DNA of 64,000 nucleotides from Candidatus Angelobacter sp. (GTDB lineage: Bacteria > Acidobacteriota > Terriglobia > Terriglobales > Acidobacteriaceae): positions 2,048-66,047 of the forward strand of contig DASXJO010000978.1 of NCBI GenBank assembly GCA_036497385.1, read 5' to 3'. The position numbers and the translations under genes are program-made. Shown here piece after piece: positions 6,478-54,670 of the stretch. The notes below the pieces were generated by a model, which searched no databases, was not told the origin of the DNA, and saw only the letters and a program-made list of their open reading frames with translations. How positions within the stretch are numbered: the stretch's first letter is position 1; every line of letters starts with the position of its first letter.

Positions 6478-6795
6478 TCAAGCCGGAGACAGATGGCCTG
6501 TGCCGGCAAAAGTCGCTAGATCGATATCGGCAAAACATTTGACCTTTTCGTAGTCGAGTGTGAGAGTGCCGACAACATGAATCCGTCCCGTGCCGCGGTC
6601 AAAATCCGCATCCAGCTTGCAGGCGGTCTTGTCGAGCCGGATGCCGAGTTCCGTGCCACCGCGCGTCCCGGTAAACTTGACGTGAAGAAATCCGCGTGCA
6701 ATCCGGTCCCGCAAGCCGTTCAAAGTGATTACCGACCGCATGGTAATTTCAACGGGATGTTCGCCCAGAGAAAGCCTTGTTACAAGATCGCTCAT
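6478..6795 (-). CDS. Hypothetical 105-aa protein
   Basis: A clean ORF with no competing frame, located between the methyltransferase and the NRPS promoter region. No family recognised. Confidence 0.4.
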   Translation of the reverse strand: MSDLVTRLSLGEHPVEITMRSVITLNGLRDRIARGFLHVKFTGTRGGTELGIRLDKTACKLDADFDRGTGRIHVVGTLTLDYEKVKCFADIDLATFAGTGHLSPA

Positions 6796-7364: not shown

Positions 7365-8700
7365 GTGAGCCAATCCAGCGTCGGTTTCCATCCTACACAC
7401 ATGGATCGTGCACTTGCACCGTCGCTCTCTTCTGCCCAGCAGCGAGTATGGTTTGTAGAGCAGTTCGAATCGGGAAACACGGGCAACCAGTTTACATGCG
7501 CGTTCCGGCTACGCGGCGAGCTGGATGAGCGCGCTCTGCGGCGGGCCATCCAGGCGGTGGTGGAGCGCCACGGGGCATTGCGGACCCGCTTTGTTGAAGT
7601 AGATGGGAGGCCGGCGCAAATTGTCGAGCCGGACGCGCGAATCGAACTGAGCCAGGAAGACTGGAGTGGTTATCCAAAGAGCGCGCAAGCTGAAAAATTG
7701 TCGGCGCTTTTGCGTAACGAATGGGACCAGCCGTTCGAGCCCGGCGGTTTCCCCATGTTTCGCCTGAAGCTGGTGCTCCTCGCGGCAAATGAATATATTT
7801 TTGTCCAAACCTTTCATTACCTGGTGTCTGACCAGGCCTCGCTGGAAATTTTTTTTCGAGAGCTTATTCAGGCATATACAGCCGCAAGGCAGGGACGCGA
7901 CTATCAGTGGGAAGCATTAAGCCTGCAATACATTGATTTCGTAGCCTGGGAACAAAGCTATCGTCAACAAGACGGGCTGGTGCAGGACCTGGCTTATTGG
8001 AAGGATCAGCTGGCCGGCCTGCATCCGGTTACTTTGCCTTACCATGCTGCACGTTCTCGGGCCTCCACCTCAGCCGCCGTCTATCACGTCACTTTGCCAG
8101 CCGAGCAGTTTGCAGTCCTCAAACAACCAGAGAAGGCGCAGAAGGCCTCCACACATGCCATAGTGGCAGCTGCTCTGGCTGTATTGCTTGCGAAACTTAC
8201 GGATGGGCGTGAATGTCTCATCGCCTGCCCCGTGGAAATCCGGCACGATCCGGTGTTCACCCCCTTGATGGGGTGCTTTTTGAATCTTGTTCCGCTACGC
8301 CTGGGAATAGAGGGATGGACACGGGAGTTCTGGACGCTGGTGGAGTCAGTACAGAAGGCTATTGATGGAGCCTGTCTGCATTGCCGGGTTCCGTTTGAAG
8401 ATCTGGTTGCCGAGCTTTCTCCGGACCGCCGCATGGACCTTGCGCCGCTCTTCCCGATAGAGCTTGATGTCCATGGCGAAGAGTGCGAAACCTGCGTGAT
8501 CGACGGTCTCCAGGTTGAAAGATCACGTGTCGATAAGCAGCGCGTTGCGTTCGACCTGGAAATCAACGTTTACGAGAGGAATGGCCGGCTCGACTTTGAC
8601 TGGGTTTATAAGCGTGACCTGTTCGATCATGAGCGCATCGCCGCAATGGCGGAATTGTATCTGCGCATACTCCAGTCGGCCATTGCCGATCCGCACGCGC
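7365..8700 (+). other. N-terminal condensation-like domain with mutated catalytic motif (HYLVSDQ at 7815-7835)
   Basis: It has LCL-like C1/C2 motifs (SLSSAQQRVWFVEQ, VERHGALRTRF). At the HHxxxDG position it reads F-H-Y-L-V-S-D-Q. The second, catalytic His is Tyr and the Gly is Gln. Confidence 0.8.
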
Positions 8701-11700
8701 CGATCCTGAAGATTGTGCCTGCACCGCTCGATGCGCAGACTGTTGCCGGCGCTGAAACACAAGCGGCCGGGCCGGAGCTGTCAGTTGTGGAACTTTTCGA
8801 GCAGCAGGCAGCCAGTCTTCCGGATGCAATAGCACTTGTATGCGGGGAGGAAGCTGTCTCATACGCGGAGGCTCGGCAAAAGATCCATGAGTTGTCCCTC
8901 CAGTTGAAACGTCTTGGGGCCGGTCCGGAGGTAATCATCGGGGTCTGCATTTCCCGATCTGTGGAACTGGTGCTGGCGTGTATGGCCGTGTTGAAGACCG
9001 GCAGCGCATGCTTGCCGATTGCTCCGGAGATTCCCTTCGCAAGGAAATCCGACATCATCAACGATGCCCGCGTAACCATTCTATTGGTAACAACACCGCC
9101 TGAAGCCTCTCTGGCGCGCCCGCTCCGTGTAGTCCAGATTGACCAGGCCATGCATCGAAATTCAGGAGCAGAATCCGAAGACTTTTCAGGGCAGGATGCG
9201 GATGTCATTCGCGGTGAGCAGGCTGCATACGCTGTTTATACATCCGGCTCCACAGGACGGCCCAAAGGCGTAGTGGTGAGCCACGGATCACTGGCTCACA
9301 AGGTACGCACGATCAACCAGCGCCTGGGCATCGGGCCTTCCACAAAGTACGCAGTCATAGCCTCGATCGGGGTCGATCCCCTCTTTGAACAGATGCTCTG
9401 CCCGGTCTGCGCCGGAGGCCAGGTCACTGTTGTTCCTGAAGAAGTCCTTGAAGATCGAGCTGCTTTTCTGGCGTACTGCGGTTTACACGAGATCAGCGTC
9501 GTGGATGTCACGCCGGCGCTGGCGGAGCATTTGTTCGAAAGCACTTCGGATCTGCGTTTCGAAATTCTTATTGTGGGCGGAGATGTCCTCACGCCCAGGG
9601 TTGCGAACGGTCTTCAAAAGACCGGCGTGGCAAAACGGCTCTTGAACGTTTATGGCCCGACTGAAACGTGTATCGATGCCACATTCCATGAGATTGCCGG
9701 CGAGCTGAGAAATACCGTTCCGATTGGAAAGCCGTTTCCTGGCTATTACGCCTTTGTGCTGGATGAGCGGTTACGGCCGGTTGGCACGAACGTGATCGGG
9801 GAACTCTATATTGCGGGCGCAGGAGTAGCGCGAGGTTATCTGAATCATCCTTCCCTGACCGCGGAGCGTTTTGTGGCTTGTCCTTTCGCGTCCGGGAGCG
9901 GACAGCGCATGTACAGGACAGGCGACTTGGCGCGCTGGGGAGAGGATTTTGTCCTGGAATTCATAGGACGCGCCGACGATCAGATCAAGATTCGCGGATA
10001 TCGAGTCGAGCCTGAGGAGGTCCGGGCCGTGCTGCAGGAACTTCCCGGCGTTAAGGAGGCTCTTGTCATTGCGTACGAAAGTTCCGGCCACAAGCAGTTG
10101 GCAGCATACATGATTGCGGACAGGAGCGATGAAAGCTTCTGCCGGAGTGTGAGCGATGAACTCCGCAGGCTCTTGCCCGATTACATGGTGCCTTCGGCGG
10201 TGATTCCCCTGCAGTCGTGGCCGCTGACCTTGAGCGGCAAAATCAATCGTCGAGTCTTGCCGCAGCCGGGCACGAGGCCGGCAAAAGCCAAACGCTGGCC
10301 AGTCACCAAAAAAGAGCGGCAGCTGGCGTGCATTGTTGCCGAATTATTGTCCCTGCCTGCGGTCGGCATGGATGATAACTTTTTTGAGCTGGGTGGTCAC
10401 TCGTTATTGGCGATGAAGCTGATCAGCCGCATCCAAAGCGCCTTTCAGAGCAAAATCTCCTTACGCAAGCTTTTTGAATGTCCCACCGTTGCTGCATTGG
10501 TGCAGCATTTATCAGACCTGCCGGCTGCGTCGCAGCTTCCGCTTGTGCCTCAGGCCCGCGACGGGCATCTATGCCTCTCATTTGCCCAGCAGCGCCTCTG
10601 GGTCATCAACCAGGTGGAGAAGGGAAATGGGCAATACAACTGGCTGGAAGGCTGGCGGATTCTCGGAGAATTAAATCCTGACGCTCTGAAGCGGGCGCTC
10701 CAGGCGATTATCGACCGGCATGAGAGCCTGCGAACGCGGTTCCCATTGCACGGAGACACGCCTGTACAAGTCATTGCCCCATCGTGGGAGATCGATCTGT
10801 CAACTGAAGACCTGAGCGGCTTCGCGGAGAGCGAAAAAGAAAGCCGGATACAGGCAATTCAGACACAGCAGTGGAACTATCCATTTGATCTTGCCAACGG
10901 CCCGCTTCTCCGCTTGAACCTCCTGAAGTTTGAGCAGGATGAGCACATCCTGCTGCTGGCCGTCCATCACATTATCTGGGATGGATGGTCACAAAGTGTC
11001 TTTATCCAGGAACTCGGAGCATTGTACGAGGCGTTCGAGCAGGGGCGCGGAAGCCCGCTCGCTCCTTTGCCGGTGCAATACGCAGACTTTGCCATATGGC
11101 AGCGTAGATGGCTTGATGAGGGCACGTTGGCAGCCCAGTCGGCATACTGGCGGAACCATTTGGCGGAAATGCCGCTCGAGCTGGCCCTGCCCAGAGACCA
11201 TTCACGCAAACAGCTCCAGACTTTCGCTTCCGAGGTATGCAAGATAATTCTTCCCGCGGATTCGTTCTGGAAACTTCGGCATTTCGGCGACTCGCATGCG
11301 GCCACGCCTTTTATGACGCTGCTCGCGGTCCTGTCGATCTTTTTCGCGCGTTACAGCGGCCAGGATGACATCGCTATTGGCTCTCCGATCGCAAATCGTC
11401 CTGACCCCAAACTCGAAGAGCTGATCGGGTTCTTTGTTAATTCGCTTGTCATGCGGGTCCAGGTTTTCCCCAGGCGCACGTTCAGGGAGACCATTGCTCT
11501 GGTTCGCACCATCGCGTTGGACGCATACCTGAACCAGGACCTTCCCTTCGAGCGCCTGGTGGAGGAGGTATGCGTGGACCGGCATCTGAACCGCACACCA
11601 CTCTTCCAGGTGGTTTTCGCCATGCTGGATGCGGTGGCGCCCCAGCAAAGCGGAGCGGTGCGATTTGAGCATTTGCCCGCATATGCGCAGAGGGTCCGTT

Positions 11701-14700
11701 TCGACCTTGAGATTCATGCGATCCAGCATCCGGAACATATCGAAATTGAATGGATCTACAATCGCAGCCTGTTCGAACGCTGGCGCGTCGAACAAATGTC
11801 CAGGCATTTCCTCAACCTGTTGCATGATGGCCTGGCGCATCCGGAACTCCCGGTAGAACATTTGAATTTTCTGGATGCCCAGGACCGGCGCCTGGTGCTC
11901 GAGGAATTCAGCTGCCGCGGTGCGGTTGCTTTAGCCGCCGTGTGGCCCGAGTTGTTTGAATCACAAGCAAAGCTTACGCCGGACTGTGTGGCTGTTGCAG
12001 GGAGCGACGGTGCGTTGTCTTATTGCAAGTTGAACGAAAGAGCCAATCAGCTCGCCCATGTGCTGATGGGATGGGGGGCCGGCCCTGAACAGGTTGTGTG
12101 CATTGCAATGGGCTCTTCGTTCACGAGGGTTGAGGCCATCCTCGCGGTCCTGAAAGCGGGCGCGGCTTGCCTGGTGGTGGACCGGCATATACCCGCCTTG
12201 CGGCTTGAATACATTTTAAAAGACTGCTGCGCGTCATTTGTGGTGATCGAAGGGCAGGATCGGGCGCGGTTTTCGAGTGAGCGCCGTATCATTGACCTGG
12301 ACTCGCCCGGTGTAAGCCGGGCTGTAAGCTCAGCCGCCATCACCAATCCTACCGATCGCGAGCGGCATTCCAGTTTGCTGTACAGCAACCTGGCTTATCT
12401 GATCTATACCTCGGGCTCCACCGGCATACCGAAGGGAGTCAGCATCACTCACCGGGGCATCGCCGCTCTTGCCGCCCAAAGCGGCCATCTTGGAATCACT
12501 CATCAGTCCCGCATCGCACAGTTTGCCGCGCCTACCTTTGACGCTTTTGTGTGGGAGATGCTGATGGCGCTGTTCACCGGCGCCGCACTTGTGCTGGTGC
12601 CTGATGATATGCGCAGCGGTCCCGCGCTGCATGATGTTCTCTCGTCGGAGCAGATCACCCACGCTCTGCTGCCGCCCACCGTCCTGGGGACCTTGAGCAA
12701 CCCCGCTCAAATGCCGCTTGCAACGCTGATTGTCGGCGGAGAAGCCTGCTCCATGGAGCTTGTCCGCCAATGGTCGTTTGGCCGCAGGATGGTCAACGCA
12801 TACGGGCCGACGGAGTCGACGGTATGCGCGACAGTGAGCAGTCCTCTTGAGGAAGGCGAAGTGGTCCCCCTCGGCCGGCCAATCCAGGGCACTGCGATCT
12901 ATATTTTGGATTCCAACTTGAAGTTGTCGCCCGTGGGAGTGCAAGGAGAACTGTATATCGCCGGCGAAGGACTGGCTCGGGGATATTTAAACCAGCCGGG
13001 CCTTACGGCGTCGCGGTTTGTCGCCGATCCATTTGGCGCTCCGGGTACGCGAATGTACAGGTCGGGAGATCTGGCGCGGTGGCGTGTGGATGGAAACCTG
13101 GAATTTCTCGGGCGGAATGACCGCCAGGTCAAGGTCCGCGGCGTACGGATCGAACTGGCGGAAATCGAGGCCGCGCTCATGCGGGATAAACGCGTTTTGG
13201 AGGCGGTGGCAACCGCCAGCGACACGAAACTCGGCCGGCACTTATTTGCCTATGTGACCGAGAGACCCGGACATGAACTCTCACAGGATTTCGAAGAGGC
13301 GCATCTGCAGGAATGGGAAGAGCTTTACGATTCCACCTACGCCGGCGAGAAGGTCTCTTTGGGAGATTTCAATATCGTTGGCTGGAACAGCAGTTACACC
13401 AGCAAGCCGATCACATCGACCGAGATGCAGATATGGCTCGCGGAGTCGGTCCAGAGTATCCGCAAACTTCGGCCGCGCCGGGTTGCGGAGATCGGATGCG
13501 GGACCGGCCTATTGCTGACCCGGCTGGCGCCCGAGTGCGAGAGTTATATCGGAATTGATTTTTCCGCGAAGGTCCTTGAGCAGGTGGGCGCCTATATTGC
13601 TCATCGTCCTGAGATGGACCACGTGGTTCTGCATCAGGGTTTTGCCGACAGGCTGGAAATGATCGGCGACCGCAGTGTCGACCTTACCATCATCAATTCA
13701 GTCGTGCAGTATTTCCCTTCGGTGGAGTATCTGATGAAGGTGCTGGATGAGGCCCTGAGAATCACGGCCGATCATGGGCACATCTTCGTGGGCGATGTCC
13801 GCAACGCGGTGCTGCTGGAGGCATTTCACACTTCCGTCCTGTTAGATAAGCTGCCGGCGTCCACGCCATTGCATGAGCTTCTCCAGCGGGTCACGGAAGC
13901 ATGCAACAACGAGAAAGAACTGGTTGTCCACCCCGAACTATTTCGGCAGGCCGGGCGGCATCATGAGCGCATCGGCCGGGTCGATGTGAGCCTCAAGCCG
14001 GGCGCCTATGACAATGAGCTGAGCCGGTTCCGCTACGATGTGGTCCTGCATCTGGGACCGCGCAGCGCGCTGCATCCTTCCGAGGAACGCTTGCCATGGG
14101 ACGCGCAGGGAAGCTGGCGCAGTTCGGTTGAAAAGCTGCTTGCGAAATCAGGGACAACCAGCATTGCGTTGCGTGGCTTTCCTGACGCCAGGGTGGCGGC
14201 AAGCGTGGAAGCGGCACGCATGTTGCATTCCGCACCGGCTGGCATCTTCACCCTGGCCCAGATCAAGAAGAGCGTTGAGAAAGTTAACGGTGAGGACCCG
14301 AACTCCGTTTTCGAACTATGCAAGCGCCTGAATGTGGAAGTGTGCTGGCAGGGGTGGAATGAAAGCGGTGTCTATGACGCAATGATAAATCCGCAATGGT
14401 GGCCGTCACTGGAATCATCGCTCGCATCAGCATGCGATTATGCGCGCTACGGCAATACGCCAGGCCGGAGACAGCAAAGAAAGAAGCTGGGCCGCATCCT
14501 TCAGCAGGAGTTGAAACAATCATTGCCTGACTACATGACGCCCTCAATTGTCATGGTATTGCCTTCCTGGCCGCTGACGGCCTCCGGGAAAATCGACATG
14601 AAGGCGCTGCCCGCGCCTGAGAGCCACGTCGCCGTACAGCGAAGGAGCCCAGGCACAGCCAAGGAATCGCTCTTGTGCTCTCTTGTCGCGAACATTTTAG

Positions 14701-16385: not shown

Positions 16386-16463
16386 CAGCCATCCCGCAAA
16401 TGAACGGTTCAAGAACCTGGCGCGCGGCGTTCCGCGAAACACTGAAAGGAGCGGATTCTAGAG

Positions 16464-22979: not shown

Positions 22980-23140
22980 ACTGCAGCGATCTTTTGACTC
23001 GATTGCATACCCAGGGAATACGCATACAACTTGTGGGCGAAAAGATCCGGTTGAGTATTCCCAGCGGGGAGCTGGATCCAGACGTGCGCGAAGAAATCAA
23101 GCTTCACCGGGAAGAAATCAAGTCTTTGCTGCGTCAGCCT
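22976..23140 (+). other. TubC-N-terminal-type docking domain
   Basis: MNCSDLLTRLHTQGIRIQLVGEKIRLSIPSGELDPDVREEIKLHREEIKSLL precedes the first C domain. It shows the pattern LL..L...G..L...G..L.....G.L......I...K.EI..LL typical of this docking fold. The partner, NRPS 2, ends in an acidic tail. Confidence 0.65.
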
Positions 23141-32830: not shown

Positions 32831-32890
32831 AGGGCCGTTTACATGGCGGAACGCCCATAGCGTTGCGCGGAGCAGGACAGGAAGCAAGAC

Positions 32891-41800: not shown

Positions 41801-42634
41801 GGTGAGTTGTACATAGGCGGCGTAGGGCTGGGACGGGGTTATGTAAACCGCCCGGAGCTGACGGCGGAGCGTTTTGTGCCTGATCACGTGAGTGGCCGGG
41901 CTGGCGAACGATTGTACCGTACGGGCGATGTAGCTCGATGGCGCGAGGACGGCGCCTTGGAATACCTTGGCCGCACGGACCATCAGGTAAAGATACGCGG
42001 TTATCGCATTGAATTGGGAGAGATCGAATCCGCACTGAGACGGCATCCCGCAGTGAACGATGCCTTAGTCACGGCAGGAGACTATCCAGGCTGCGAGAAA
42101 CGCCTGATAGCCTATGTGGTCGCTCATCCGGACAAAGCAGTTGCTGGCGGAACCGGCTCCCCGCAGTCGCGCGCTTCTGCACAACTCCAAACGGAATTGC
42201 CGCTCTACCTCGCACAAGGGCTTCCGGAGTACATGCTCCCTTCAGCTTTTGTATTTGTAGACAGTTTTCCGCTGCTGTCCAACGGAAAGCTTGATCGCCA
42301 AGCCTTGCCTGCTCCAGAGTTTTGGACGCGCAACGAATATGTGCCGCCCCAAACCCCGCAAGAAGCGGCGCTATGCGGTGCTTTTGCCGAGGTGCTGCGC
42401 GTCGAGCGGGTTGGCGTGGACGACAATTTTTTTGAATTGGGTGGAAACAGCATCAGCTCAATCCGGGCCGTAACCAAACTGCGGGATGCCGGGGTGATGA
42501 TCACTCTCCGCGATTTCTTTCATCTGCAAACAGCCAGGAACATGGCGGCGGTTGTGAACTGTGCCGGGCTTGATTCCCTCATAAAGTTGGCAAATCCGGA
42601 AGGGACGCTGATGCAAAGCACGAAAACAGCCTGA
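32891..42634 (+). CDS. NRPS 4 (3247 aa): C8-A8-T8-C9(DCL-like)-A9-T9-C10-A10-T10, no release domain
   Basis: Motifs read by domain:
- C8: IPLSYPQQRLWFIDQL, HHIVFDGWS (from 33425).
- A8: LAYVIYTSGSTGNPRG, WNMYGPTETTIW, NGKLDRNQLP.
- T8: FFELGGDSI (Ser 36038-36040).
- C9: VEDAYPLNYMQMGMVYH, HHAILDGWS (from 36650).
- A9: LAYVIYTSGSTGEPKG, WNMYGVTECSDD, NGKLDRKALP.
- T9: FFQLGGHSL (Ser 39245-39247).
- C10: LPLSHAQERLWFIDQL, HHIVSDEWS (39809-39832).
- A10: AAYVIYTSGSTGRPKG, HNLYGPTETAID, NGKLDRQALP.
- T10: FFELGGNSI (Ser 42449-42451), followed by a 60-aa tail and the stop. Confidence 0.97.
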   Translation: MDTLVSTRIAKLSDAKRLLLEKRLSGAAAAGDCPELVSLSPRPQFIPLSYPQQRLWFIDQLEHGGSTQYNLPAAFRLTGNLDVKILVQAIQAIVDRHEILRTRFVPIQGSPAQMIEPRLTMEIPLHDISSLDADSQKTFILTALERERQQPFDLEHGPLLRVKLLKLKEQEHILLRTTHHIVFDGWSDGIFNQELSALYQAFQDGRENPLLRLELQYADFAIWQRQAMEAGPLEEGLRYWKQKLAGIPTHLNLPTDRLRPARQTFRAKGFYLKVPETAAAELKKLTQESRTTLYMSLLAAFGVLLSRYSGEADVVVGSPIANRNDRRLEQMIGFFITVLAMRLQISGTMNFLELLRETRKTALEAYQHQDVPFERIVDEISPQRSLSRTPLFQVLFAMQNAPWEAQRISGLQTERITGEDLRVRYDMEVHAWEDEGEIWLRWLYNCDLFDSWRIEQMSRHFIHVLEAAAAAPQKALGEIDLLTAEERLEILEGWNQTSADYPRTFVHQLIAEQAARTPERVVADYEGQQLTYGELNRRANQLSRYLVRLGAGPETRVAICMERSLEMLVTLLAVLKSGAAYVPLDPSYPVKRLQYIFEDAEIGIFLTQASIEEHMPAGTGTRIIVDERSAEIDRESSENPDAVAFDHLAYVIYTSGSTGNPRGVQVSHHALTNFLLSMQREPGISELDVLLAVTTLSFDIAGLELYLPMIAGARVKILDRAAISDPRQLLDAMQEVTVMQATPGTWQLVLQAGWSGSQGIKALCGGEALNSELAGKLVRCSGSTWNMYGPTETTIWSSTSSVQAGEEKTSLGRPIANTKFFVLDEWMKPVPRGVCGELYIGGEGLARGYWKRGDLTAERFVPDPFSVKGGERLYRSGDLARYSGEGRLEYLGRCDQQVKVRGYRVELKEIEAALQGHENVKQAAVLVQTDDNGAQLLVAYVAKIGPQEEAPAAETAPEIDAGELRKYLQGILPEYMIPGQYVWMQQLPLLPNGKLDRNQLPNLATLGRSGREYVAPRSEVEKSLCGIWQEVLRQEKVGIEDNFFELGGDSIRAITVIYKSSQLGINIKLVELFEQQTISALAGGLAPALSTAHEPDPIASVALLSANDRALLPEDVEDAYPLNYMQMGMVYHNQLGQKSGLYHDVFSHHIRISEWNPEVFREVLDALAAKHPVLRTSLSLDAYSEPLQMVHRKTHIPVEFHDLSGLSSSLQEETLQRWREEEQKSSFVLSHAPLLRIFIHRRSTESFQYTLSFHHAILDGWSVGLFQMELFREYTRRTGEQAKKHDLAPLRSTFKRAIAREKLSLASEATKSFWSAYLQGWSTPFLPALKPKSSSGEVRRFVTILPAGLKTRLFQVAAALHVPLRTLFLAAHLRIMAFFSGEKDAITGLVCHSRLEEWDGENVLGMFINILPFRQTVRVSTWSELVRQTYARELEIMPHRHYPYAEIFIQNDRIPLFETGFNYTDFHVYAGFRDLNSIEFLGGSNFEATDLAVEVNVIMRGEDGALNLAYDAIRFSSQQIEQLAGYYSAVLQSMAASPDSGTGLQAILSEAQFRQVLYEWHGQTKDMPAALVPDLFEQQVERTPDAVALSYEDRYLSYGGLNEQANQFAHYLISEGRGPEDLIGIYLPRSLEIAVVMLGILKAGAAFLPFDPEFPQGRVASILKGANPALVVSTRKLQRSLPRQVLSLDIEEPGFASALRRMPADNPVNRERKTPLLPRHLAYVIYTSGSTGEPKGAAIEHGGMLNHMLAKIEDLALNERDIMGHTATIVFDVAIWQLWAALLAGGRVHIINGESTGDVLNILRTLHEREVSVLETVPSVLTIMLDAAADEGWPSLRHTIANGEPLTNEMYQRWRRMSRAGHLWNMYGVTECSDDATHYRVEGESREGDVIAVGQALRNTELYLLDDALEPVPSGMPGELYIGGAGVGRGYFRQPGHTADRFIGSPFGKPGSRIYRTGDRMICRPDGVLRFLGRTDHQVKLRGFRIELGEIESALRQQTEVRDAVALIREEKDGDKRVVAYVVPATDSAIDPQLLRRALGRALPEHMVPAAIVVLDAFPLTLNGKLDRKALPSPEYSSMLPYRPARTAQEEVLCSLFAEVLGIEQPGIDDNFFQLGGHSLSAMRLVSRIRSTLALELSIKTFFEAPTVAGLSARLRDSAKGREPLIRQPRPQALPLSHAQERLWFIDQLEAGRSTQYHIPLALRLRGKLDTEALEKAFHAILERHESLRTRFIQVNGEALQVIEPYQAMPIELEDLSALDAESQRLRVSDALNQEWEKAFDLEHGAGWRVKLLKLNETEHVLLRTTHHIVSDEWSEKIFDQEFGVLYEAFLEKRQNPLPPLQVQYADFAIWQRRWLQQGVLQKGLNYWRQQLAGIPEHLELSKDTPPSASPSFDAQIHEIEVPAGLLPGLKRLTEQGKATLYMSLLAALGVLLSRYSSQQEVVVGSPVADRQDPQLEELIGLFINLLALRMRVPRQASFLELLDEVRKMTLEAYQHQYVPFEQVVDEVCPRRSLSRTPLFQVVFSVHTAMREGRSLKGLEVERILGEGVRTRHDIEVHAWEGKNRLWVHWLYKRDLFSARQMNQMAQHYVRVLEAVVAAPEQALEEIDLLTAEERRMILEEWNRTAADYPQMFVHRRIEEQAARTPERVAVDYEGQHLTYGELNRRANQLARHLLKIGVKAESRVGICLERSMEMLVALLGVMKAGAAYIPLDPENPKERLRFMIEESQITVVLLQQKFVAKCPPHLPWLIKLDTGWEVISREDDEDQAILVESDNAAYVIYTSGSTGRPKGAMNTHRGLENRLVWMQEKYRLGGDDRVLQKTPFGFDVSVWEFFLPLIAGAELVVARPEGHRDPFYLANLIQQKEVSTLHFVPSMLAAFLDAGREQGCGSVRRIFCSGEALQPELARRCKELFNGELHNLYGPTETAIDVSWHECTLHLEGTVPVGRPIANTRMYVLDQAGQAAPVLVPGELYIGGVGLGRGYVNRPELTAERFVPDHVSGRAGERLYRTGDVARWREDGALEYLGRTDHQVKIRGYRIELGEIESALRRHPAVNDALVTAGDYPGCEKRLIAYVVAHPDKAVAGGTGSPQSRASAQLQTELPLYLAQGLPEYMLPSAFVFVDSFPLLSNGKLDRQALPAPEFWTRNEYVPPQTPQEAALCGAFAEVLRVERVGVDDNFFELGGNSISSIRAVTKLRDAGVMITLRDFFHLQTARNMAAVVNCAGLDSLIKLANPEGTLMQSTKTA
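42359..42634 (+). other. Terminal carrier protein T10 plus short tail (end of the assembly line)
   Basis: EAALCGAFAEVLRVERVGVDDNFFELGGNSISSIRAVTKLRDAGVMITLRDFFHLQTARNMAAVVNCAGLDSLIKLANPEGTLMQSTKTA-stop. No GxSxG thioesterase, no Rossmann reductase and no further HHxxxD domain follows. Confidence 0.85.
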
Positions 42635-42685
42635 TTTCCGGGCGCAACCCGCATCATTCATGCGGCTATTTCAAGGTGTTCGGGC

Positions 42686-43627
42686 GTGAGTTCGAGAATA
42701 ATGGCAAGACTAGATCGTTGTAGCGCATCCGATTTCGCCGATTCCGGCTTCCAGTCCGTGGGCCTGGGGACAAGCATCGCCCATCACGGCGAGCTGTTTC
42801 AAGGCCAAATAAGGGGTGAAGACGGGCAGTTGCGATATTGCCTGCTGTCACTGCCCTGTAGCCAGCTTGGCTCCAAGGCAACTTTTGTCCCGGACACCAC
42901 CGGTATATGCCGCGTCCACCCGGACTATAAAGAGAAGGTCAAGAGAGTCGTGCAACTTACGCTCTCACATTTTCAGTACGACCATCTGGGCGGGCTCATC
43001 AAGGTAGAAAGCAATATCGCCGAGGGAAAAGGCTATGGAAGTTCGACCGCGGATTGCGTCGCGGGCGCAATTGCAGCCGCGGCGGCGATCGACCACGAGT
43101 TGTCTGAAGCCACTCTGGCTAAATTGGTGGTACGGGCTGAAATCGCAAGTGACAGCATTATGTTCAAGCATGCTGTTCTTTTCGCGCACAGAGAAGGCAG
43201 CCTGATTGAAGATTACCTGCGCCCAGCCCCGAAAATCGAAGTACTTGGATTCGACACCAATGTGGCTGTCCGGGTCGATACGCTCCAGTATGACCCTGCT
43301 GTCTATGGGACGCATCACATACAAGCATTTCACCGGCTTAGAGAAATGCTGGCGGAAGCTATCCGCACCCAGGACGTTCGGCTTTTGGCGCATGTTGCCA
43401 CGGCCAGCGCCGCAATCAATGAGCAATTCCTGCCCAAGCCGATGTTTCAGGAAGTCTGCACCCTCGTCAAGTGCGTTGGAGGCCTAGGGGTTGCGGCTGC
43501 ACATTCCGGGACCATTTTAAGCATTTTATTCGACCCGCAAGATCCTGCTCTCGAAAAACGAATCGACATTCTTCACCGGGAATTGAGCAGCCTGGGTCTT
43601 TCACAGCTGATGCGTTTTCATACTTAA
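42686..43627 (+). CDS. GHMP-family kinase, PduX (L-threonine kinase)-like
   Basis: Blocks that parallel my recollection of Salmonella PduX: SIAHHGELFQGQI (PduX has CGELIQGW), VESNIAEGKGYGSSTADCVAGAIAAAAAI (the GHMP phosphate-binding motif), ASAAINEQFLPKPMF, and LGVAAAHSGTILSILFD. The alternative start is ATG 42701. Confidence 0.8.
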   Translation: MSSRIMARLDRCSASDFADSGFQSVGLGTSIAHHGELFQGQIRGEDGQLRYCLLSLPCSQLGSKATFVPDTTGICRVHPDYKEKVKRVVQLTLSHFQYDHLGGLIKVESNIAEGKGYGSSTADCVAGAIAAAAAIDHELSEATLAKLVVRAEIASDSIMFKHAVLFAHREGSLIEDYLRPAPKIEVLGFDTNVAVRVDTLQYDPAVYGTHHIQAFHRLREMLAEAIRTQDVRLLAHVATASAAINEQFLPKPMFQEVCTLVKCVGGLGVAAAHSGTILSILFDPQDPALEKRIDILHRELSSLGLSQLMRFHT

Positions 43628-43641
43628 GGAGCGGTAATCAC

Positions 43642-44697
43642 GTGAGTGCTACAAAAGCGATATCGCCGGTGAGCTTCGATATTTACCGCCCAGCCTTTGT
43701 CGCGCTGGCGGATAACCTCATTGCGGCCGTATTTCCACTCATGAAAATCTATCCGGCCGAGTACTGTCTTCGGACCGCAATCAAGCAGGGGCTGATCGAT
43801 GATGGCACAGTCATTGTCGAAACATCGTCCGGCAATCTTGCGCTGGGCCTGGCGATTGTCTGCAACTCGATGGGCCAGAAACTCACTATCGTAACCGACT
43901 ACGCTTGCGATCCGCATTTATGCCGTCGATTGACCGATTTAGGAACGAACCTGGAGATTGTGCCCGCGCCTGCCGCTACCGGCGGCTATCAAAGAGCGCG
44001 CCTGGATCGCCTTGAGGAGATCCGGCAGGTGCAGCGCAATCACTGGTGGCTGAACCAGTATGACAATCTGGGAAACTCAGAGGCATATCGGTCGTTTGCA
44101 CAGCAGATTCTGGAAACGGTGGGCCCCATTGATTGCCTGGTAGGGACCGTAGGCTCCGGAGGTTCGGTCTGCGGGACCGCCAAGGCGCTGCGAGAGACCC
44201 TGCCGATGTTACATGTGATCGGGGTAGATACATTCGGGAGCGTGCTCTTCGGCCAACCGGAAAGGCCAAGAGTGCTGCGGGGGCTGGGCAACAGCATCAT
44301 GCCCAAGAACCTCGACCATACCGTATTCGATGAAGTCCACTGGGTTACCGCAGCAGAGGCCTATAAAGCTTCGCGGGTGCTCCACCAAAGAACGGCGCTT
44401 TTTCGCGGTGGAACCAGCGGTGCTTCCTGGCTAGTGGCCCAGCATTGGGCCAGAATGAATCCCGAGGCGCGCGTGCTGTGCATCTTCCCCGATGACGGCT
44501 ACAGATACGCAGACACCATTTACAACGATTCATATCTGGCGGCCTCCGGATTAATTTTGCCTTCCTTGCCAAGCTGCCCTAAACAGGTCGATCAGCCCTC
44601 CGACTCAGGTCCGGAATGGTCGTGGATGAAGTGGATGCGCCGCAGCTTGGTTACCGTGATGCAAATGAACCATGAACAAGCGTCGAGGCTGAGATGA
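43642..44697 (+). CDS. Fold-type-II PLP-dependent enzyme (cysteine synthase / SbnA / cystathionine-beta-synthase family)
   Basis: The track ORF starts at 43471 inside the kinase gene. I place the start at GTG 43642, 10 nt after AAGGAG (43626-43631). Motifs: LMKIYPAEY (PLP-lysine position of the S-x-K-D-R block), VETSSGNLALGLA, GTVGSGGSVCG (the phosphate-binding Gly loop), and GGTSGASW. Confidence 0.8.
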   Translation: MSATKAISPVSFDIYRPAFVALADNLIAAVFPLMKIYPAEYCLRTAIKQGLIDDGTVIVETSSGNLALGLAIVCNSMGQKLTIVTDYACDPHLCRRLTDLGTNLEIVPAPAATGGYQRARLDRLEEIRQVQRNHWWLNQYDNLGNSEAYRSFAQQILETVGPIDCLVGTVGSGGSVCGTAKALRETLPMLHVIGVDTFGSVLFGQPERPRVLRGLGNSIMPKNLDHTVFDEVHWVTAAEAYKASRVLHQRTALFRGGTSGASWLVAQHWARMNPEARVLCIFPDDGYRYADTIYNDSYLAASGLILPSLPSCPKQVDQPSDSGPEWSWMKWMRRSLVTVMQMNHEQASRLR

Positions 44698-45911
44698 AAG
44701 AGTCCGTGATTTTAATTGAGAGTAATACGACCGGCACCGGGCGCTTGTTTGCCCAATGCGTACGCTCTCTCGGATATCGTCCTGTTCTGCTGGCGGAAGT
44801 TCCTTCGCGATACACATATATAAAGGATGACGACATCGATTGCCTGCAAGTCAGAACCTCAGAGCCGTGGGAGCTGCGGGAAGCGGTCAGCCGGTTGGCG
44901 CAGGAGACGCCGATTGCGGGCATTTACTCCAGCTCTGAATATTTCATAGAAGAGGCGGCAACGCTTGCTTCCAGCTATGGTCTGCCTGGCGCCGACCCGT
45001 TGGTTGTGAAGGAGTGCCGCAATAAATATCATCAGCGGCTTCGCCTCAAAGAGGCGGGAATTCCGGTCCCCCGGTTCTGGTTCGCCAGTTCTCATTCAGA
45101 CCTTGCAGAGCTGCTCCAATCCGTTCCGCTGCCCGTAGTGGTGAAGCCTGTTGCTGGAAGCGGCAGCGTCGGCGTGAGGCTATGCCGGACCTACGCTGAA
45201 GTTCTCCAGCACTGCAGCGATCTGCTCAACAGGACTGTCAATGAGAGAGGATTGCCACAACCCTCGGATGTCCTGATTGAGGAGTACCTGGAAGGACAGG
45301 AATATTCTGTCGAAATTTTTGGCAACGCGATCATGGGCATTACTCTGAAGCATGTTTCGCGCGGGCCTTCTTTTGTGGAGATCGGCCACGATTTTCCTGC
45401 CCGCCTGGCCCCCGATGTGAATGAACAAATCGCGCAAACCGCGCTCCGCGCGAGCAAAGCCATGGGGCTGAACTGGGGGCCGATCCATATCGAGATCAAA
45501 ATGACCTCTCGGGGGCCTGCGATTGTTGAGATCAATCCCCGCCTTGCCGGGGGGTTCATACCCGAACTGGTGCGGCTTGCGTATGGGATCGATCTGATTC
45601 GCGAATCCGTGCGCAATATCGTTCAGCACGCCATCGATATCAAACCTACCAGCAACCGGAGCGCATCTATCCGCTTCCTGGTGCCCCGGACCAGCGGCAG
45701 GGTCAGGTGTATTGAAGGTGTGGAGGAAGCCAGAAGCGTTCCGGGCGTAGTGGAAGTGAGGACATACGTTCAGCCTGGAAGCGATGTGCAGCTGCGCGGA
45801 GACTTCCGTGACCGCATTGCCCATGTTATTGCATCCGGCGTTGCCGAGGGAGCGGCGGAGCATTCATCGCAAACGGCTTGCAACAGGATCAACATTGAAG
45901 TGAGTTCGTAA
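44694..45911 (+). CDS. ATP-grasp ligase (405 aa)
   Basis: Shares an ATGA overlap with the upstream gene. Motifs: CRNKYHQRLRLKEAGIPVP, PVVVKPVAGSGSVGVRL, LIEEYLEGQEYSVEIF, and GPIHIEIKMTSRGPAIVEINPRLAGG. Together these form the ATP-grasp fold signature. Confidence 0.8.
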   Translation: MKESVILIESNTTGTGRLFAQCVRSLGYRPVLLAEVPSRYTYIKDDDIDCLQVRTSEPWELREAVSRLAQETPIAGIYSSSEYFIEEAATLASSYGLPGADPLVVKECRNKYHQRLRLKEAGIPVPRFWFASSHSDLAELLQSVPLPVVVKPVAGSGSVGVRLCRTYAEVLQHCSDLLNRTVNERGLPQPSDVLIEEYLEGQEYSVEIFGNAIMGITLKHVSRGPSFVEIGHDFPARLAPDVNEQIAQTALRASKAMGLNWGPIHIEIKMTSRGPAIVEINPRLAGGFIPELVRLAYGIDLIRESVRNIVQHAIDIKPTSNRSASIRFLVPRTSGRVRCIEGVEEARSVPGVVEVRTYVQPGSDVQLRGDFRDRIAHVIASGVAEGAAEHSSQTACNRINIEVSS

Positions 45912-45922
45912 AAGAGAAGAAG

Positions 45923-47392
45923 ATGGAAAATACGGGAAGAATCCGGAAGCTTCTGAGTCCCACCGCCCGCAAGATCCTTTTCGGGCGGTCCACCAGTTCG
46001 ATGATTGATGACGAGTTGCCGTTCATTTGCAGCGCCGATTGTGCTCACCTGGTGATGCTTGCCGAATGCGGCATATGCGACCCGCAGTCGACTGCGCGAT
46101 TGCTGCGGGCCATTCAGCGTCTGATGGAAGCAGACTTTGATGTGCTGCGAGGCCGCGATCCTGTGCGCGGCATGTTCCTCTTATATGAGGACTACCTCAT
46201 TGAAACGGAGGGAGCTGAAGTTGGCGGAATCTTGCAAACCGCGCGATCAAGAAACGATTTAAACGCCACAGTGACAAAGATGCGGCTGCGGAAGCCTTAT
46301 ATCCGGCTACTTTCCGAAATCCTGAAATTTGAGGCAATTTTGTTAAGGCGGGTGGAAGCCTATCTTGATGTCGTGATGCCGGCCTACACACATGGCCAGC
46401 CGGCCGCGCCGTCAACCCTGGGGCACTATCTGGCTGGTTTTACGCAAGCCCTCATGCGCGACTTCGATGGCCTTTTGGATGCGGGCAGGAACATCAGCCA
46501 GTCTCCTTTGGGCTCCTGTGCAATCGCGGGCACGTCATTTCCCATTGATACGCGGCGAACTGCCCAATTACTCGGGTTTGATGAAGGACCAGTGAATTCC
46601 GTGGATGCTATCGCTTCTCGCGATCTGGTCCTGCGGATTCTTGCAGCAGCTTCCATTTGCGGCATCACTTTAAGCCGGCTGGCGACCGACCTTCTTGAAT
46701 GGAGCACCGCCGAGTTTGGATTCCTGGATTTGCCGGATGAGTTGGTCGGCTCAAGTTCGGCGATGCCCCAGAAACGGAATCCCTTTCTGCTGGAGCATGT
46801 AAAAGGACGAACCGCCTCTATTCTGGGAGCTTTTGTTGCCTCGGCCTCCGCTATGCGAGGAACGCCCTTCACGAATTCTATTGCTGTTGGGACCGAGGCG
46901 ATAAAGCCGGTTTGGGCGGCCTTGGACGAACTGACGGACAGCGTTGTATTGTTGCGCATTTTTGTAGCCGGACTGCGCCCTAAGCGCGAAGCGATGATGC
47001 AGTGCGCAAAGGCGGGATTTACCGTCGCCACCGAACTGGCGAACAAATTGGTGGCCAGAGCAGGCATGGATTTTCGCAGTGCGCATAGAGCGGTCGGGCA
47101 AGCCATAACCGCCGTGGGCAACAAAGAATCGGGTTCGGTTGAAGCGATTGCCGCCGAAGTGTCGAGTTCAAGGGGCATATCCATTCTGGCTGAAGAGCTT
47201 GAGCCGGCTTTTGTGGCCCAAGCGAGCGTCTCCGGTGGCGGACCTGCACGGTCCTCAGTGGAGACATGCCTTCAGATGCTCAAGCAACGCTGGCTTGAGC
47301 AGAAGGCCCAGAGCCGGTCTTACAAAAGAACGTGGCTGAATGCGGAAGCCCAACTGGAAGATGCCGTCCAGACGCTACGCCAGTGTTCGTAG
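45923..47392 (+). CDS. Argininosuccinate lyase / fumarate-lyase superfamily C-N lyase (489 aa)
   Basis: Motifs: TARSRNDLNATV, HGQPAAPSTLGHYL, and the superfamily signature GSSAMPQKRNPFLLEHVKG. Confidence 0.85.
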   Translation: MENTGRIRKLLSPTARKILFGRSTSSMIDDELPFICSADCAHLVMLAECGICDPQSTARLLRAIQRLMEADFDVLRGRDPVRGMFLLYEDYLIETEGAEVGGILQTARSRNDLNATVTKMRLRKPYIRLLSEILKFEAILLRRVEAYLDVVMPAYTHGQPAAPSTLGHYLAGFTQALMRDFDGLLDAGRNISQSPLGSCAIAGTSFPIDTRRTAQLLGFDEGPVNSVDAIASRDLVLRILAAASICGITLSRLATDLLEWSTAEFGFLDLPDELVGSSSAMPQKRNPFLLEHVKGRTASILGAFVASASAMRGTPFTNSIAVGTEAIKPVWAALDELTDSVVLLRIFVAGLRPKREAMMQCAKAGFTVATELANKLVARAGMDFRSAHRAVGQAITAVGNKESGSVEAIAAEVSSSRGISILAEELEPAFVAQASVSGGGPARSSVETCLQMLKQRWLEQKAQSRSYKRTWLNAEAQLEDAVQTLRQCS

Positions 47393-47482
47393 ATTGAAAT
47401 AGAACGGGCACTGGCCGCTGTAGTAGAGGGTTTCTGCCCGTCGCGCTTTTCGAAGTAAAAATTTAATTGGAGGAACTAAGAC

Positions 47483-48226
47483 ATGACTGAATCTCTCGAG
47501 AAATTATTGGCAAAGATCACCAACCATTCCGCGCTGGAAAACAAATTCTATGATGAGTGGATGTCCAGAAAATTTTCTGTCAATGAACTGGCGATTGTTC
47601 ACAAAAATTATGGTGAATGGGTCAGGTCCTTTCCCGATGCGCTGGCAATTCTTCTGGCCGGCACGCAAGATGTGGAAGCAAAAACGGAATATGCAAAAAC
47701 GCTTTACTCGGAAATGGGATATGGAAATTCCAGCAAGGTGCATTCCGTGCTTCTTAATAACTTTTTCAAAGAGCTGGTCGAGAGAATGGACCCTGCGCAG
47801 GCGGCGGATTGGGAGCGGCTGCATCAAGAAATTTATCTGGCGCCGAGCACCCAAGAATTGGTTCGCGGCGAGCAGGACCTTTATCGCGATCCGGAAATGT
47901 CCTTTGGCGCTCAGCTTGCGCTGGAGTGGCAGGCATATACGATGCTGAGGAAACTGTACGATGGGGCCAGAAATTACATTGAATTTTGGCCGAACCCGGA
48001 TGACTTCCATGAAGCGTGTGAATATTTCTATGCTCATATTGGCGCCACGGAAAAAGAACACAAGCAAGAGTCTCTCAAGGCGGTGAGGCGATACGCTGTC
48101 AACCAGAAAGCCCTGGATAAGATCGTCGAAGGATATGAACTTCACCTGGGCCTGATCGCCCGTTTCTGGCGAGGACTATATGCTGAAATAACCCAACCGA
48201 GTGCGATATCAATGGCAATAGCTTGA
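47483..48226 (+). CDS. Heme-oxygenase-like fold protein (TenA/PqqC/CADD-type, possible di-iron oxidase), 247 aa
   Basis: All-helical protein. NHSALENKFYDEWMSRKFSVNELAIVHKNYGEWVRSFP resembles the N-terminus of PqqC/TenA/CADD-like proteins. Candidate metal ligands sit in E-x-x-H-like spacings (YSEMGYGNSSKVHSVL; LEWQAYTM; FYAHIGATEKEHKQE). Confidence 0.55.
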   Translation: MTESLEKLLAKITNHSALENKFYDEWMSRKFSVNELAIVHKNYGEWVRSFPDALAILLAGTQDVEAKTEYAKTLYSEMGYGNSSKVHSVLLNNFFKELVERMDPAQAADWERLHQEIYLAPSTQELVRGEQDLYRDPEMSFGAQLALEWQAYTMLRKLYDGARNYIEFWPNPDDFHEACEYFYAHIGATEKEHKQESLKAVRRYAVNQKALDKIVEGYELHLGLIARFWRGLYAEITQPSAISMAIA

Positions 48227-48808
48227 GCCAGGCTTTTGATGTTGACTCCATGTGACCGAATCAGCGACGTCCCTGGTCGCCCCTCTGTTCTTGCGGTTGA
48301 AACGGCCATCGAGGAGCAGAAAAAGCTGTTCGTAGGCGATCAAGAATTTGCAACCTGCTGTTTTGGGGGCAACAGCTTGGGCTGCCGGAGCACCGCGGCA
48401 GAGATGAAGGTCCTCTGTTTTTCTCTATGCCGGCGGGTAAGAAAGGGAGACCTTCGCTGCGAGAGGCAATATAAGTTTGACAAAAATACCGGAGTTCATC
48501 GCGGATACTCCCAGACGTGAGCCGCCAAGCCACGAAGGGGAGTACGCGATGGTAGCCTGCCAGGCCTCCAGGCTCCGGTGCAGATTGTGATCGGCATTTG
48601 TGATTGGCGGCGCTCAGATCGTGTATTACGCACGCGATTGCCGTCGCTGTTATCGCTGTATCGCTCGCCCATCCTCGTCCCCATCGACGAAGCTGTGCTC
48701 GATTAGGCGTCGAAGTAGAATTTTGATTTTCTTATACTTCCAGAGTACCTGCCTAGCCTCATCGAGCAAAAAATGCTGAATGCGGGAACGGCTGTAACTG
48801 CTTGAAAA

Positions 48809-48836: not shown

Positions 48837-48894
48837 GAACCAAGCGGAGCGACTGACGGTGATTATGCGGCGGTTCGGCAAGACAGGATGAGTG

Positions 48895-49637: not shown

Positions 49638-49710
49638 TGGCTTCGATTTTAAGACACCTAATGATCGTAAAAGATAACACCATTCTGGGTAGATAATCAG
49701 CGTCTTACTA

Positions 49711-54669: not shown

Positions 54670-54670
54670 A

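Follow-up and report, generated by a model that had tools for sequence, protein, structure and literature searches.

We analyzed a 64,000-nt stretch of DNA (hereafter the window), which spans record positions 2429-66428 of the JGI metagenome contig 3300036829/Ga0376667_0000022 (155,471 bp) and carries a large gene cluster for a nonribosomal peptide synthetase (NRPS). The conserved part of the locus covers ~49 kb, in which genes for a carbamoyltransferase, a PadR-family regulator, an ADOP permease, an MbtH-like protein, a methyltransferase, and a 105-aa protein resembling CBF-beta (core-binding factor beta) are followed by nrpsA-D, dabA-dabB-dabC(N)-dabC(C), and a gene for a heme-oxygenase-like diiron oxidase (HDO). 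The last nine of these genes, located on the + strand between positions 7365 and 48226, are co-directional and are separated by gaps of 78, -4, 60, 66, 14, -4, 11, and 90 nt. A previous reading of the same DNA, made from its letters and open reading frames (ORFs) and called here the sequence-only reading, had described this region as a single block of four NRPS genes and five further genes with ten modules; both the composition and the spacing of the block were recovered, as were the ATGA overlaps at 22976 and 44694. The label of tailoring genes that it gave to the five further genes had to be replaced: four of them form a precursor cassette of the dabA, dabB, and split-dabC type, and the fifth codes for the HDO.

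Architecture of the ten-module synthetase

The nine co-directional genes are listed below (C, condensation; A, adenylation; T, thiolation; E, epimerization; N-MT, N-methyltransferase; DCL and LCL, C domains joining a D- or an L-residue, respectively, to an L-residue; PLP, pyridoxal phosphate).

7365..16385, + strand: nrpsA, modules 1-2, C1-A1-T-C2-A2(N-MT)-T-E, where C1 has a changed HHxxxDG motif
16464..22979, + strand: nrpsB, modules 3-4, C3(DCL-like)-A3-T-C4-A4-T
22976..32830, + strand: nrpsC, modules 5-7, TubC_N docking domain-C5-A5-T-C6-A6-T-C7-A7-T
32891..42634, + strand: nrpsD, modules 8-10, C8-A8-T-C9(DCL-like, after Gly)-A9-T-C10(HHIVSDEWS)-A10-T
42701..43627, + strand: dabA-like GHMP kinase, Pfam GHMP_kinases_N/_C (PF00288, PF08544), presumed L-threonine kinase
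43642..44697, + strand: dabB-like PLP beta-replacement enzyme of the SbnA family, TIGR03945 (237 bits, E = 2e-70), Pfam PALP
44694..45911, + strand: N-terminal half of dabC, ATP-grasp, NF002563 positions 2-396 of 890 (E = 3e-113)
45923..47392, + strand: C-terminal half of dabC, argininosuccinate lyase (ASL)-like, NF002563 positions 410-884 of 890 (E = 4e-132), Pfam Lyase_1 and ASL_C2
47483..48226, + strand: HDO of the BesC/CADD type, PF14518

The four NRPS proteins are 3006, 2171, 3284, and 3247 aa long and match the Pfam families Condensation, AMP-binding, and PP-binding with E = 1e-139 to 1e-292; with uninterrupted frames of 6.5-9.9 kb, a chance origin of these ORFs is no issue. The domain order was established by phmmer searches with the GrsA A domain, searches seeded by the cluster's own C, T, and E domains, and motif scans. 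Exactly ten A domains were detected by phmmer, together with 11 C/E-type domains and ten T domains, all ten of which keep the phosphopantetheine serine (GG(H/D/N)S). The core motifs and carrier serines of its repeated C-A-T modules are intact, as in a linear multimodular (type I) NRPS. The domains that bear on configuration, N-methylation, and chain start are the following:

7425..8708, + strand: C1, LCL-like, HYLVSDQ in place of HHxxxDG (motif at 7815)
13263..14501, + strand: N-MT insert in A2, 413 aa, between motifs A8 and A10
14865..16244, + strand: E domain of module 2, motifs HHLVVDGVS and EGHGRE
29543..30925, + strand: C7, dual E/C-type, HHLMEGHGD at 29702, plus HHLVSDH

The N-MT and the E domain that the sequence-only reading placed in module 2 are both evident from their motifs. 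The insert matches Pfam Methyltransf_11/12/25/31 at nrpsA residues 2034-2160 and carries VAEIGCGTG, which binds S-adenosylmethionine (SAM), and NELSRFRY, which we take to be typical of NRPS N-methyltransferases. The E domain shares only 23-29% identity with the C domains of the cluster, and the T2 domain ahead of it reads GGDSI.

Six of the C domains (C2, C4, C5, C6, C8, and C10) constitute one group with 41-62% identity; C10 contains the HHIVSDEWS motif noted previously, at nrpsD residue 2307 (nt 39809). The domains C3 and C9, located after the E domain and after the Gly module, respectively, are outliers with 22-26% identity, a divergence expected of DCL-type domains. C7 is the most divergent C domain (22-26% identity to the others) and was already described as E/C-like, an assignment upheld by its extra N-terminal motif and by its similarity to the DCL branch. 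The motif HHLMEGHGD at nrpsC residue 2243, which lies ahead of HHLVSDH at residue 2363 and is found in no other C domain of the cluster, fits the HH[I/L]xxxxGD signature of dual E/C domains. The best PDB matches of C7 are McyB, PvdL, and TycB2, which place it in the DCL branch, and module 6 directly ahead of it is a C-A-T module without an E domain, the position in which a dual E/C domain is found. These features support a D-configuration of residue 6. C7 is similar to the E/C domains of Pseudomonas lipopeptide synthetases of the arthrofactin and syringomycin type, reportedly described by Balibar in 2005 and by Rausch in 2007, in having the extra HH[I/L]xxxxGD motif besides HHxxxD, no preceding E domain, and a DCL grouping. 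In contrast to those synthetases, only one of the ten C domains here is a dual E/C domain, of predicted activity, and a classical E domain is also used.

Among the carriers, T10 (42380-42535) reads GGNSI and T8 (35969-36136) reads GGDSI, both resembling E-serving carriers such as T2 rather than the usual GGHSL. The motif of T10 may have a bearing on the partner that takes the chain from this domain.

Predicted residues and the dab cassette

Adenylation codes were extracted from a MAFFT alignment of the ten A domains to GrsA, and the reference was checked against PDB 1AMU, to which it is identical over residues 1-556 save residue 2. The alignment reproduced 99 of the 100 positions in the ten codes that the sequence-only reading had derived by hand. 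The exception is position 278 of A3, which is F and not L in the 1AMU alignment; this position is alignment-dependent, and both readings are Pro-type. The codes were compared with the published tables in the supplement of PMC12283262, as follows:

A1, DPEDIGVIDK: 7/10 to PamA (Arg/Lys, DPEDIGGVEK) and 7/10 to XcnA (Arg, DPENIGHVDK); Arg/Lys-like
A2, DAWLIGAVCK: 8/10 to the N-Me-Phe code DAWTIAAVCK; Phe-like hydrophobic
A3, DVQFIGHAVK: 8/10 to the Pro code DVQFIAHVVK; Pro-like
A4, DAWLIGFVGK: best 6/10 (Val, DAWLLGATIK) in the tables compared; hydrophobic
A5, DAKDLGHVNK: 8/10 to the Glu code DAKDLGVVDK; Glu-like
A6, DGTKMGHVGK: 8/10 to the Asp/beta-OH-Asp code DLTKVGHVGK; Asp-like
A7, DANLVTEVVK: no match in the code tables
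A8, DILQLGMIWK: identical to a Gly code; Gly
A9, DVWEINMDDK (37601..39118, + strand): 8/10 to sulfazecin diaminopropionate (Dap) DVWEMNADDK, 7/10 to EdeK Dap DIWEATMDDK, 6/10 to 2,4-diaminobutyrate (2,4-Dab) DIWELTADDK; Dap/2,3-Dab
A10, DVWHFSLIDK: Ser-type DVWH-SL-DK code; Ser

The acidic pocket previously noted in A1 was evident in the alignment, and its code agrees at 8/10 positions with the Arg consensus D[AV]ED[IVL]GA[VI][TD]K; its Pro236, regarded as unusual by the sequence-only reading, has precedents in PamA and XcnA. A6 contains His322, which marks Asp rather than Asn in the code tables (PMC12283262). The assignments of A8 to Gly and of A10 to Ser agree with the table comparison. For A9, the acidic diamino-acid pocket stood and the 2,4-Dab code had been given correctly; the sulfazecin Dap/Dab code is nearer to A9 than the 2,4-Dab code (8/10 versus 6/10). 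A full-text literature search returned no matches for the codes of A2, A3, A5, A6, A7, and A9, and canonical ten-letter codes likewise matched almost nothing in it. Combined with the N-MT, the E domain, and C7, the codes predict the sequence Arg/Lys-like - NMe-D-(Phe-like) - Pro-like - hydrophobic - Glu-like - D-(Asp-like) - X7 - Gly - (2,3-Dab/Dap) - Ser.

The precursor cassette named previously consists of an adjacent GHMP kinase and SbnA-type PLP enzyme (14 nt apart), followed by an ATP-grasp protein and an ASL-like protein that together cover DabC. The dabB-like protein scores under the equivalog cutoff of the SbnA model TIGR03945, which is to be expected of a paralogue. In the dabABC route (Li et al. 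2024, PMC10906522), a Thr kinase forms O-phospho-Thr, the PLP enzyme swaps in the amine of L-Asp, and the ASL-like lyase removes fumarate to give (2S,3R)-2,3-Dab; split DabC arrangements are known in other clusters, and dabABC homologues occur in the friulimicin, pacidamycin, and napsamycin clusters (PMC10906522). By analogy, the DabA-like kinase of the present cluster would phosphorylate L-Thr, the DabB-like enzyme would replace the phosphate by the amine of L-Asp, and the ASL-like half of the split DabC would eliminate fumarate to yield (2S,3R)-2,3-Dab for A9.

The cassette shares the order GHMP kinase, PLP enzyme, and DabC with the dabABC operon of the Burkholderia thailandensis E264 monobactam cluster, and both adjoin an NRPS with a Dap/Dab-type A-domain code. 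In contrast to the E264 operon, DabC is split here into two ORFs, the host is acidobacterial, and the cassette lies within the presumed NRPS operon and is followed by the HDO gene. The A9 code shares eight of ten positions with the sulfazecin A domain (SulI in Table S21 of PMC12283262; SulM A3 in PMC10906522), including the acidic pocket of W239-E278 and D330-D331 as well as N301, and differs from it at 299 (I versus M) and 322 (M versus A). A9 is internal and followed by C10, whereas the sulfazecin domain is part of a terminal A-T-thioesterase (TE) unit that forms the beta-lactam. Among the matches listed in a search with A9, the nearest whole-domain relatives are at most 47% identical and mostly carry DIWE[ILV]TADDK-type codes; this A9-only search listed no protein longer than 960 aa, the window's own included, so that closer full-length relatives may exist.

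Conservation, chain start, and chain release

An orthologous cluster with ~94% nucleotide identity was found in two metagenome-assembled genomes (MAGs), GCA_037025165.1 and GCA_037025225.1, on contigs JBAIHY010000018.1 (195 kb) and JBAIHX010000161.1 (86 kb). The shared block of ~49.2 kb extends from ~611 nt before window position 1 to position 48603, which is 377 nt past the HDO gene, and a blastn comparison of locus L094 with the window gave 93.6% identity over 34699-48603 and nothing after.

48227..48603, no strand: right-hand end of the shared block, beyond which the contexts diverge

The flanks in the MAGs are chromosomal: one contains M61 peptidase, PIG-L, patatin, NUDIX, and DinB genes, and the other contains genes for BshC, a beta-propeller protein, and an aldehyde dehydrogenase. 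On the present contig the locus occurs in two copies, separated by 77,941 bp and differing at 3 of the 16,991 bp compared (loci L082 and L083). The contig therefore represents approximately two turns of a ~78-kb unit, which could result from concatemeric assembly of a circular element, from a tandem duplication, or from an artefact. Most of this unit is taken up by the 49-kb cluster; the other ~29 kb is of lower guanine-plus-cytosine (GC) content and lacks chromosomal housekeeping genes, and no Rep or Par genes were recognized.

Nei-Gojobori ratios of nonsynonymous to synonymous substitution rates (dN/dS) between the window and its MAG orthologue were 0.04-0.30 for all genes and domains compared, indicating purifying selection. 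The values were 0.24 for C1 (the same as for A1-T1), 0.18 for A9, 0.13 for the kinase, 0.09 for the C-terminal half of dabC, 0.09 for the HDO, 0.25 for the 105-aa ORF, 0.11 for the ADOP permease, and 0.17 for the stand-alone methyltransferase. The orthologue keeps the HYLVSDQ motif of C1, identical A8-A10 codes, and the TE-less end, and together with the dN/dS values this conservation indicates that the cluster has been kept by selection in its present form.

The acidobacterial origin proposed by the sequence-only reading is supported by the ADOP family match, by an Angelobacter-labelled relative, and by acidobacterial HDO homologues. The ATP-grasp and ADOP proteins share 90%-identity clusters with NCBI MAG proteins, and one member of the ADOP cluster is annotated as Candidatus Angelobacter sp. 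(Acidobacteriota, Terriglobia); the source, an uncultured soil acidobacterium, is probably Candidatus Angelobacter or a close relative. In the accessible text of Crits-Christoph et al. (2022, PMC9723581), biosynthetic gene clusters of Candidatus Angelobacter are reported without MIBiG links. The genomes in question belong to the same or a near lineage and hold large multi-gene NRPS clusters without a MIBiG counterpart, and a search of this text found no description of the present cluster or of its dab cassette.

We interpret the locus, with a probability of about 0.8, as a functional orphan linear type I NRPS cluster that makes a decapeptide with a cassette-supplied diamino acid. The ten modules would assemble the decapeptide on the thiotemplate, with the MbtH-like protein assisting the A domains. 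The methyltransferase embedded in A2 would methylate the amine of residue 2, the E domain would invert this residue, and the DCL-type C3 would accept the resulting D-residue, while C7 would epimerize residue 6 (D-Asp or beta-OH-Asp) and condense it with residue 7. The carbamoyltransferase and the free methyltransferase may decorate the peptide, which the ADOP permease would export. The cluster is a real, intact, and ordinary example of a well-known kind with apparently no described product, and nothing about it is surprising in kind, orphan NRPS clusters being common in this lineage. Acidobacteria are abundant in soil, and almost none of their predicted peptides have been characterized. The locus offers a near-complete and apparently functional blueprint of ten residues, seven of them confidently typed, with two D-centers, one N-methyl group, and one 2,3-diamino acid. 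It also extends the recently defined dabABC route to 2,3-diaminobutyrate to a new phylum and draws attention to two conserved accessory proteins, the BesC-like diiron oxidase and the CBF-beta-like protein, from a family with a member encoded next to an MbtH gene.

Several points weigh against this interpretation. The nine genes would form one operon as judged from their spacing, and promoter and terminator scans showed no excess over shuffled sequence, that is, chance level. Stachelhaus matches at 7-8/10 are only indicative, and A4 and A7 are without an assignment. The NCBIfam threonine-kinase models gave no match to the kinase, which has only weak generic GHMP matches, and DabB/DabC are also able to make L-Dap from O-phosphoserine (PMC10906522). 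At the two ends of the assembly line, C1 may retain some function despite its HY motif, being under purifying selection, and neither the 49-kb block nor the remainder of the 78-kb unit nor the flanks of the MAG orthologue were found to encode a TE, reductase (R), terminal C, or abhydrolase domain, so that the product may be linear or cyclic.

The points on the kinase and on O-phosphoserine bear on the identity of residue 9, which is possibly L-2,3-diaminopropionate (or 2,4-Dab) and not 2,3-diaminobutyrate, an option that we consider real and do not favor. The codes nearest to A9 are the Dap codes of SulI and EdeK. Against this option stand the dedicated GHMP kinase immediately upstream of dabB and the fact that O-phosphoserine requires no extra kinase. 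The synthesis of 2,4-Dab needs an aminotransferase route of the EctB type and not this cassette. In a survey of producers, an L-Thr kinase was present in four of four Dab producers and in none of five Dap producers (Li et al. 2024, PMC10906522). The same study found that SulM A3 and the corresponding E264 domain can each activate L-Dap as well as (2S,3R)-Dab, and that SulM-type A domains kinetically prefer Dap (PMC10906522). Based on the logic of the cassette and on this acceptance of both substrates, 2,3-Dab is the preferred reading of residue 9, and Dap is the alternative.

At the chain start, module 1 is a C-A-T module whose C1 domain matches Pfam Condensation (E = 1.6e-81) and keeps the core motifs C1, C2, C4, and C5. 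In its HHxxxDG motif the second His is replaced by Tyr and the Gly by Gln, with the same changes in the MAG orthologue; lacking the catalytic His, C1 is probably non-catalytic. The best PDB match is the LCL-type Txo1 (163 bits), and solved starter C domains score lower: 84 bits for CDA-C1, 51 bits for RzmA, and 60 bits for the 461-aa 'Surfactin synthetase' chain 8f7f, which is presumably the starter C of SrfA-A. C1 thus shows neither the intact HHxxxDG motif nor the affiliation expected of a starter C domain. An exhaustive HMMER search with C1 was uninformative, as the summed scores of giant synthetases dominated its results. Lipo-initiation via C1 appears unlikely in view of the HYLVSDQ motif, the LCL resemblance, and the lack of an acyl-activating gene nearby.

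These data also make it unlikely that the product carries an N-acyl group or exceeds ten residues in length, with C1 a working starter or elongation domain that takes a fatty-acyl or peptidyl donor from a carrier protein encoded elsewhere. Such a role would fit the retained core motifs, the purifying selection on C1 at the level of A1-T1, and the fact that all four synthetases start with a C domain and none with an A domain; moreover, a few C domains, for example VibH, tolerate mutation of the second His. It is opposed by the HYLVSDQ motif in both the window and the orthologue, by the similarity to Txo1 far above that to starter C domains, and by the finding that neither the 49-kb conserved block nor its flanks contain an acyl-CoA ligase, an acyl carrier protein, or a further NRPS gene.

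At the other end of the line, nrpsD stops 32 residues past T10 without a terminal release domain, an architecture conserved in one sequenced orthologue at ~6% divergence. Release of the decapeptide would then occur in trans or by an unrecognized route not encoded in the cluster. A bolder reading takes the conserved absence of a release domain as an undescribed way to end a bacterial NRPS line. It draws on a selected C1 domain without its catalytic His, the E-type-like T10, and a side-chain amine at the penultimate residue, so that the degenerate C1 may act in trans on T10, or the beta-amine of Dab9 may bring about self-cyclization. On that reading, the HDO and the CBF-beta-like protein might represent new accessory factors with a general role in acidobacterial NRPS systems, and the 49-kb cluster in the window may ride on a ~78-kb circular mobile element. 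We consider this reading doubtful and give it little weight beside the orphan decapeptide cluster proposed above.

It is improbable that the orphan cluster belongs to a known compound family, for example as a distant relative of the Dab-containing acidic lipopeptides of the amphomycin/friulimicin type. Like that of amphomycin, the cluster has a dab cassette, and the predicted peptide agrees with the amphomycin sequence in having an imino acid as residue 3, acidic residues at 5-6, and Gly8-Dab9. In contrast, the cluster has ten modules instead of eleven and lacks a TE, fatty-acyl loading genes, and the Asp-X-Asp-Gly motif; the order here is Glu-like, Asp-like, X, Gly, which is not that of the calcium-dependent acidic lipopeptides. 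No relative of module 1 above 36% identity was found in 185,579 GTDB species genomes, actinomycete producers included. The limit of 47% identity for the A9 matches listed, the six unusual codes without a match in the searchable literature, and the Angelobacter clusters reported without MIBiG links in the accessible text of PMC9723581 point in the same direction.

The least credible alternative, that the cluster is decaying and makes no product, as the absent release domain, the HY motif of C1, a nonsense codon in PadR, and a truncated flavin adenine dinucleotide (FAD) enzyme and CheB fragment in mobile-element surroundings on the same contig might suggest, is contradicted by ~35 kb of uninterrupted NRPS reading frame, by the intact carrier serines and A-domain core motifs, and by dN/dS values of 0.04-0.30 against an orthologue ~6% diverged with the same TE-less, HY architecture.

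Accessory genes and surroundings of the cluster

The MbtH-like protein, methyltransferase, ADOP exporter, and carbamoyltransferase named by the sequence-only reading all exist, but they are located upstream of 7365-48226 and not within it:

1..1507, - strand: NodU/CmcH-type carbamoyltransferase, 692 aa in the contig, 3' end beyond the window start, left end of the conserved block
1727..1993, + strand: PadR-family regulator, Pfam PadR, in-frame stop at 1991-1993
2062..4563, + strand: ADOP duplicated MacB/FtsX permease, TIGR03434 902 bits (cutoff 622), Pfam MacB_PCD x2 and FtsX x2
4723..4959, - strand: MbtH-like protein, PF03621, E = 4e-25
5171..6325, - strand: stand-alone class I SAM methyltransferase, Pfam Methyltransf_11/23/25
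6478..6795, - strand: 105-aa CBF-beta-like protein, no Pfam/NCBIfam family at the thresholds used

The carbamoyltransferase was absent from the ORF list because the gene runs off the window start; the full gene has the Pfam domains Carbam_trans_N, Carbam_trans_C, and SCP2. The PadR orthologue in the MAGs is an intact 113-aa protein (95.5% identity by tblastn) whose gene overlaps the permease start, and the stop in the window may reflect either true inactivation or an error in sequencing. The permease scores above the TIGR03434 cutoff with both of its domains duplicated, as in other ADOP proteins, and is the likely exporter of the peptide.

The 105-aa protein has an AlphaFold model with a predicted local distance difference test (pLDDT) of 89.9, which Foldseek matched to eukaryotic CBF-beta (template-modeling (TM) score of 0.71-0.75). 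Its 420 homologues, some of them named 'MbtH domain protein', come from Acidobacteria, Cyanobacteria, and Chloroflexi where labelled. In the one context examined, a cyanobacterial homologue is encoded 60 nt upstream of an MbtH gene in a polyketide synthase/NRPS region. A literature search found no paper tying CBF-beta-like proteins to NRPS systems. Scans of the locus for tRNA genes and Rfam families gave no matches.

BesC (7TWA) is the best match of the HDO in both sequence and fold (TM scores of 0.74/0.82; model pLDDT of 89), with CADD and HrmI next. The putative ligands E77, H87, E148, H185, and E190 do not vary among 59 homologues, and the conservation of H193 is at least 90%; together with the seven-helix heme-oxygenase-like fold, these ligands identify the HDO type. 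The protein is similar to BesC (4-chloro-allylglycine synthase), CADD, and HrmI in fold, ligands, and size (~250 aa), but shares only ~20% sequence identity with them and belongs to a tight acidobacterial subfamily. Homologues at 60-70% identity adjoin NRPS genes in many contigs, and all those carrying an organism name are acidobacterial. Since the solved relatives all use free amino acids, our best guess is that the HDO oxidizes a free amino acid to a building block, maybe for A4 or A7.

Two other ideas about the HDO were rejected. The diiron decarboxylase LynB7/BarH, considered as a precedent for chain termination, has a different fold and is not applicable. The HDO was also considered as the supplier of a Pro-like A domain with the code DVQxxGHxVK, which is located upstream of HDO genes in loci L085, L086, L088, and L093; these domains resemble A7 of the window (46-51%) and not A3 (42%), and locus L092 has an HDO without this code in the part seen.

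Several HDO-relative loci display further common features. In L086, L088/L089, and L093 the HDO gene is followed by one for a tRNA_bind protein of 115 aa and next by a gene for either an FAD enzyme of the Trp-halogenase type or an aminotransferase, whereas in L085 the halogenase directly follows the HDO without a tRNA_bind gene. The combination of HDO, tRNA_bind protein, and FAD enzyme or aminotransferase looks like a recurrent accessory module. Three HDO-relative loci with otherwise different NRPS lines share the codes DMFS.AL.(S/Y)K, DAEH..(V/M)ITK, and DVQHMGH(I/V)VK. Directly downstream of the HDO gene in the window, a 93-aa ORF (48239-48520, + strand) was called on the contig; it is Cys/Arg-rich, has no family, and was not called in the orthologous MAG, so that it is probably not a gene, though the DNA is conserved to 48603.

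The low-GC block (~0.49-0.53), which comprises window positions 48604-64000 and record positions 66.4-79.8 kb, contains mostly unannotated small genes, and also those for a DNA ligase domain protein (58766-59437), YdjM, DUF6197, a helix-turn-helix (HTH) regulator, and a faint TraC-like protein. A PHROGs scan of ten proteins from this block detected no phage structural genes. A 507-aa large serine recombinase is encoded in the block at record positions 68711-70234; genes for a tRNA_bind protein, an aminotransferase, and a truncated FAD enzyme come next on the contig, along with a fragment of CheB. The idea that a ~20-kb element had split the cluster from these tRNA_bind, aminotransferase, and FAD genes, which are located 20 kb downstream here but directly after the HDO gene in relatives, was rejected, because the MAG orthologue ends at the HDO gene and continues with housekeeping genes. 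Within the low-GC block, shortly after the cluster at window positions 49871-52047 (+ strand), a Cap2-like E1-E2 fusion (PADLOC E1-E2, 134.6 bits) precedes a JAB peptidase resembling Cap3 (79 bits). Among the neighbours scanned, neither a CD-NTase nor an effector was recognized, and the two genes look like an orphan ubiquitin-like conjugation pair.

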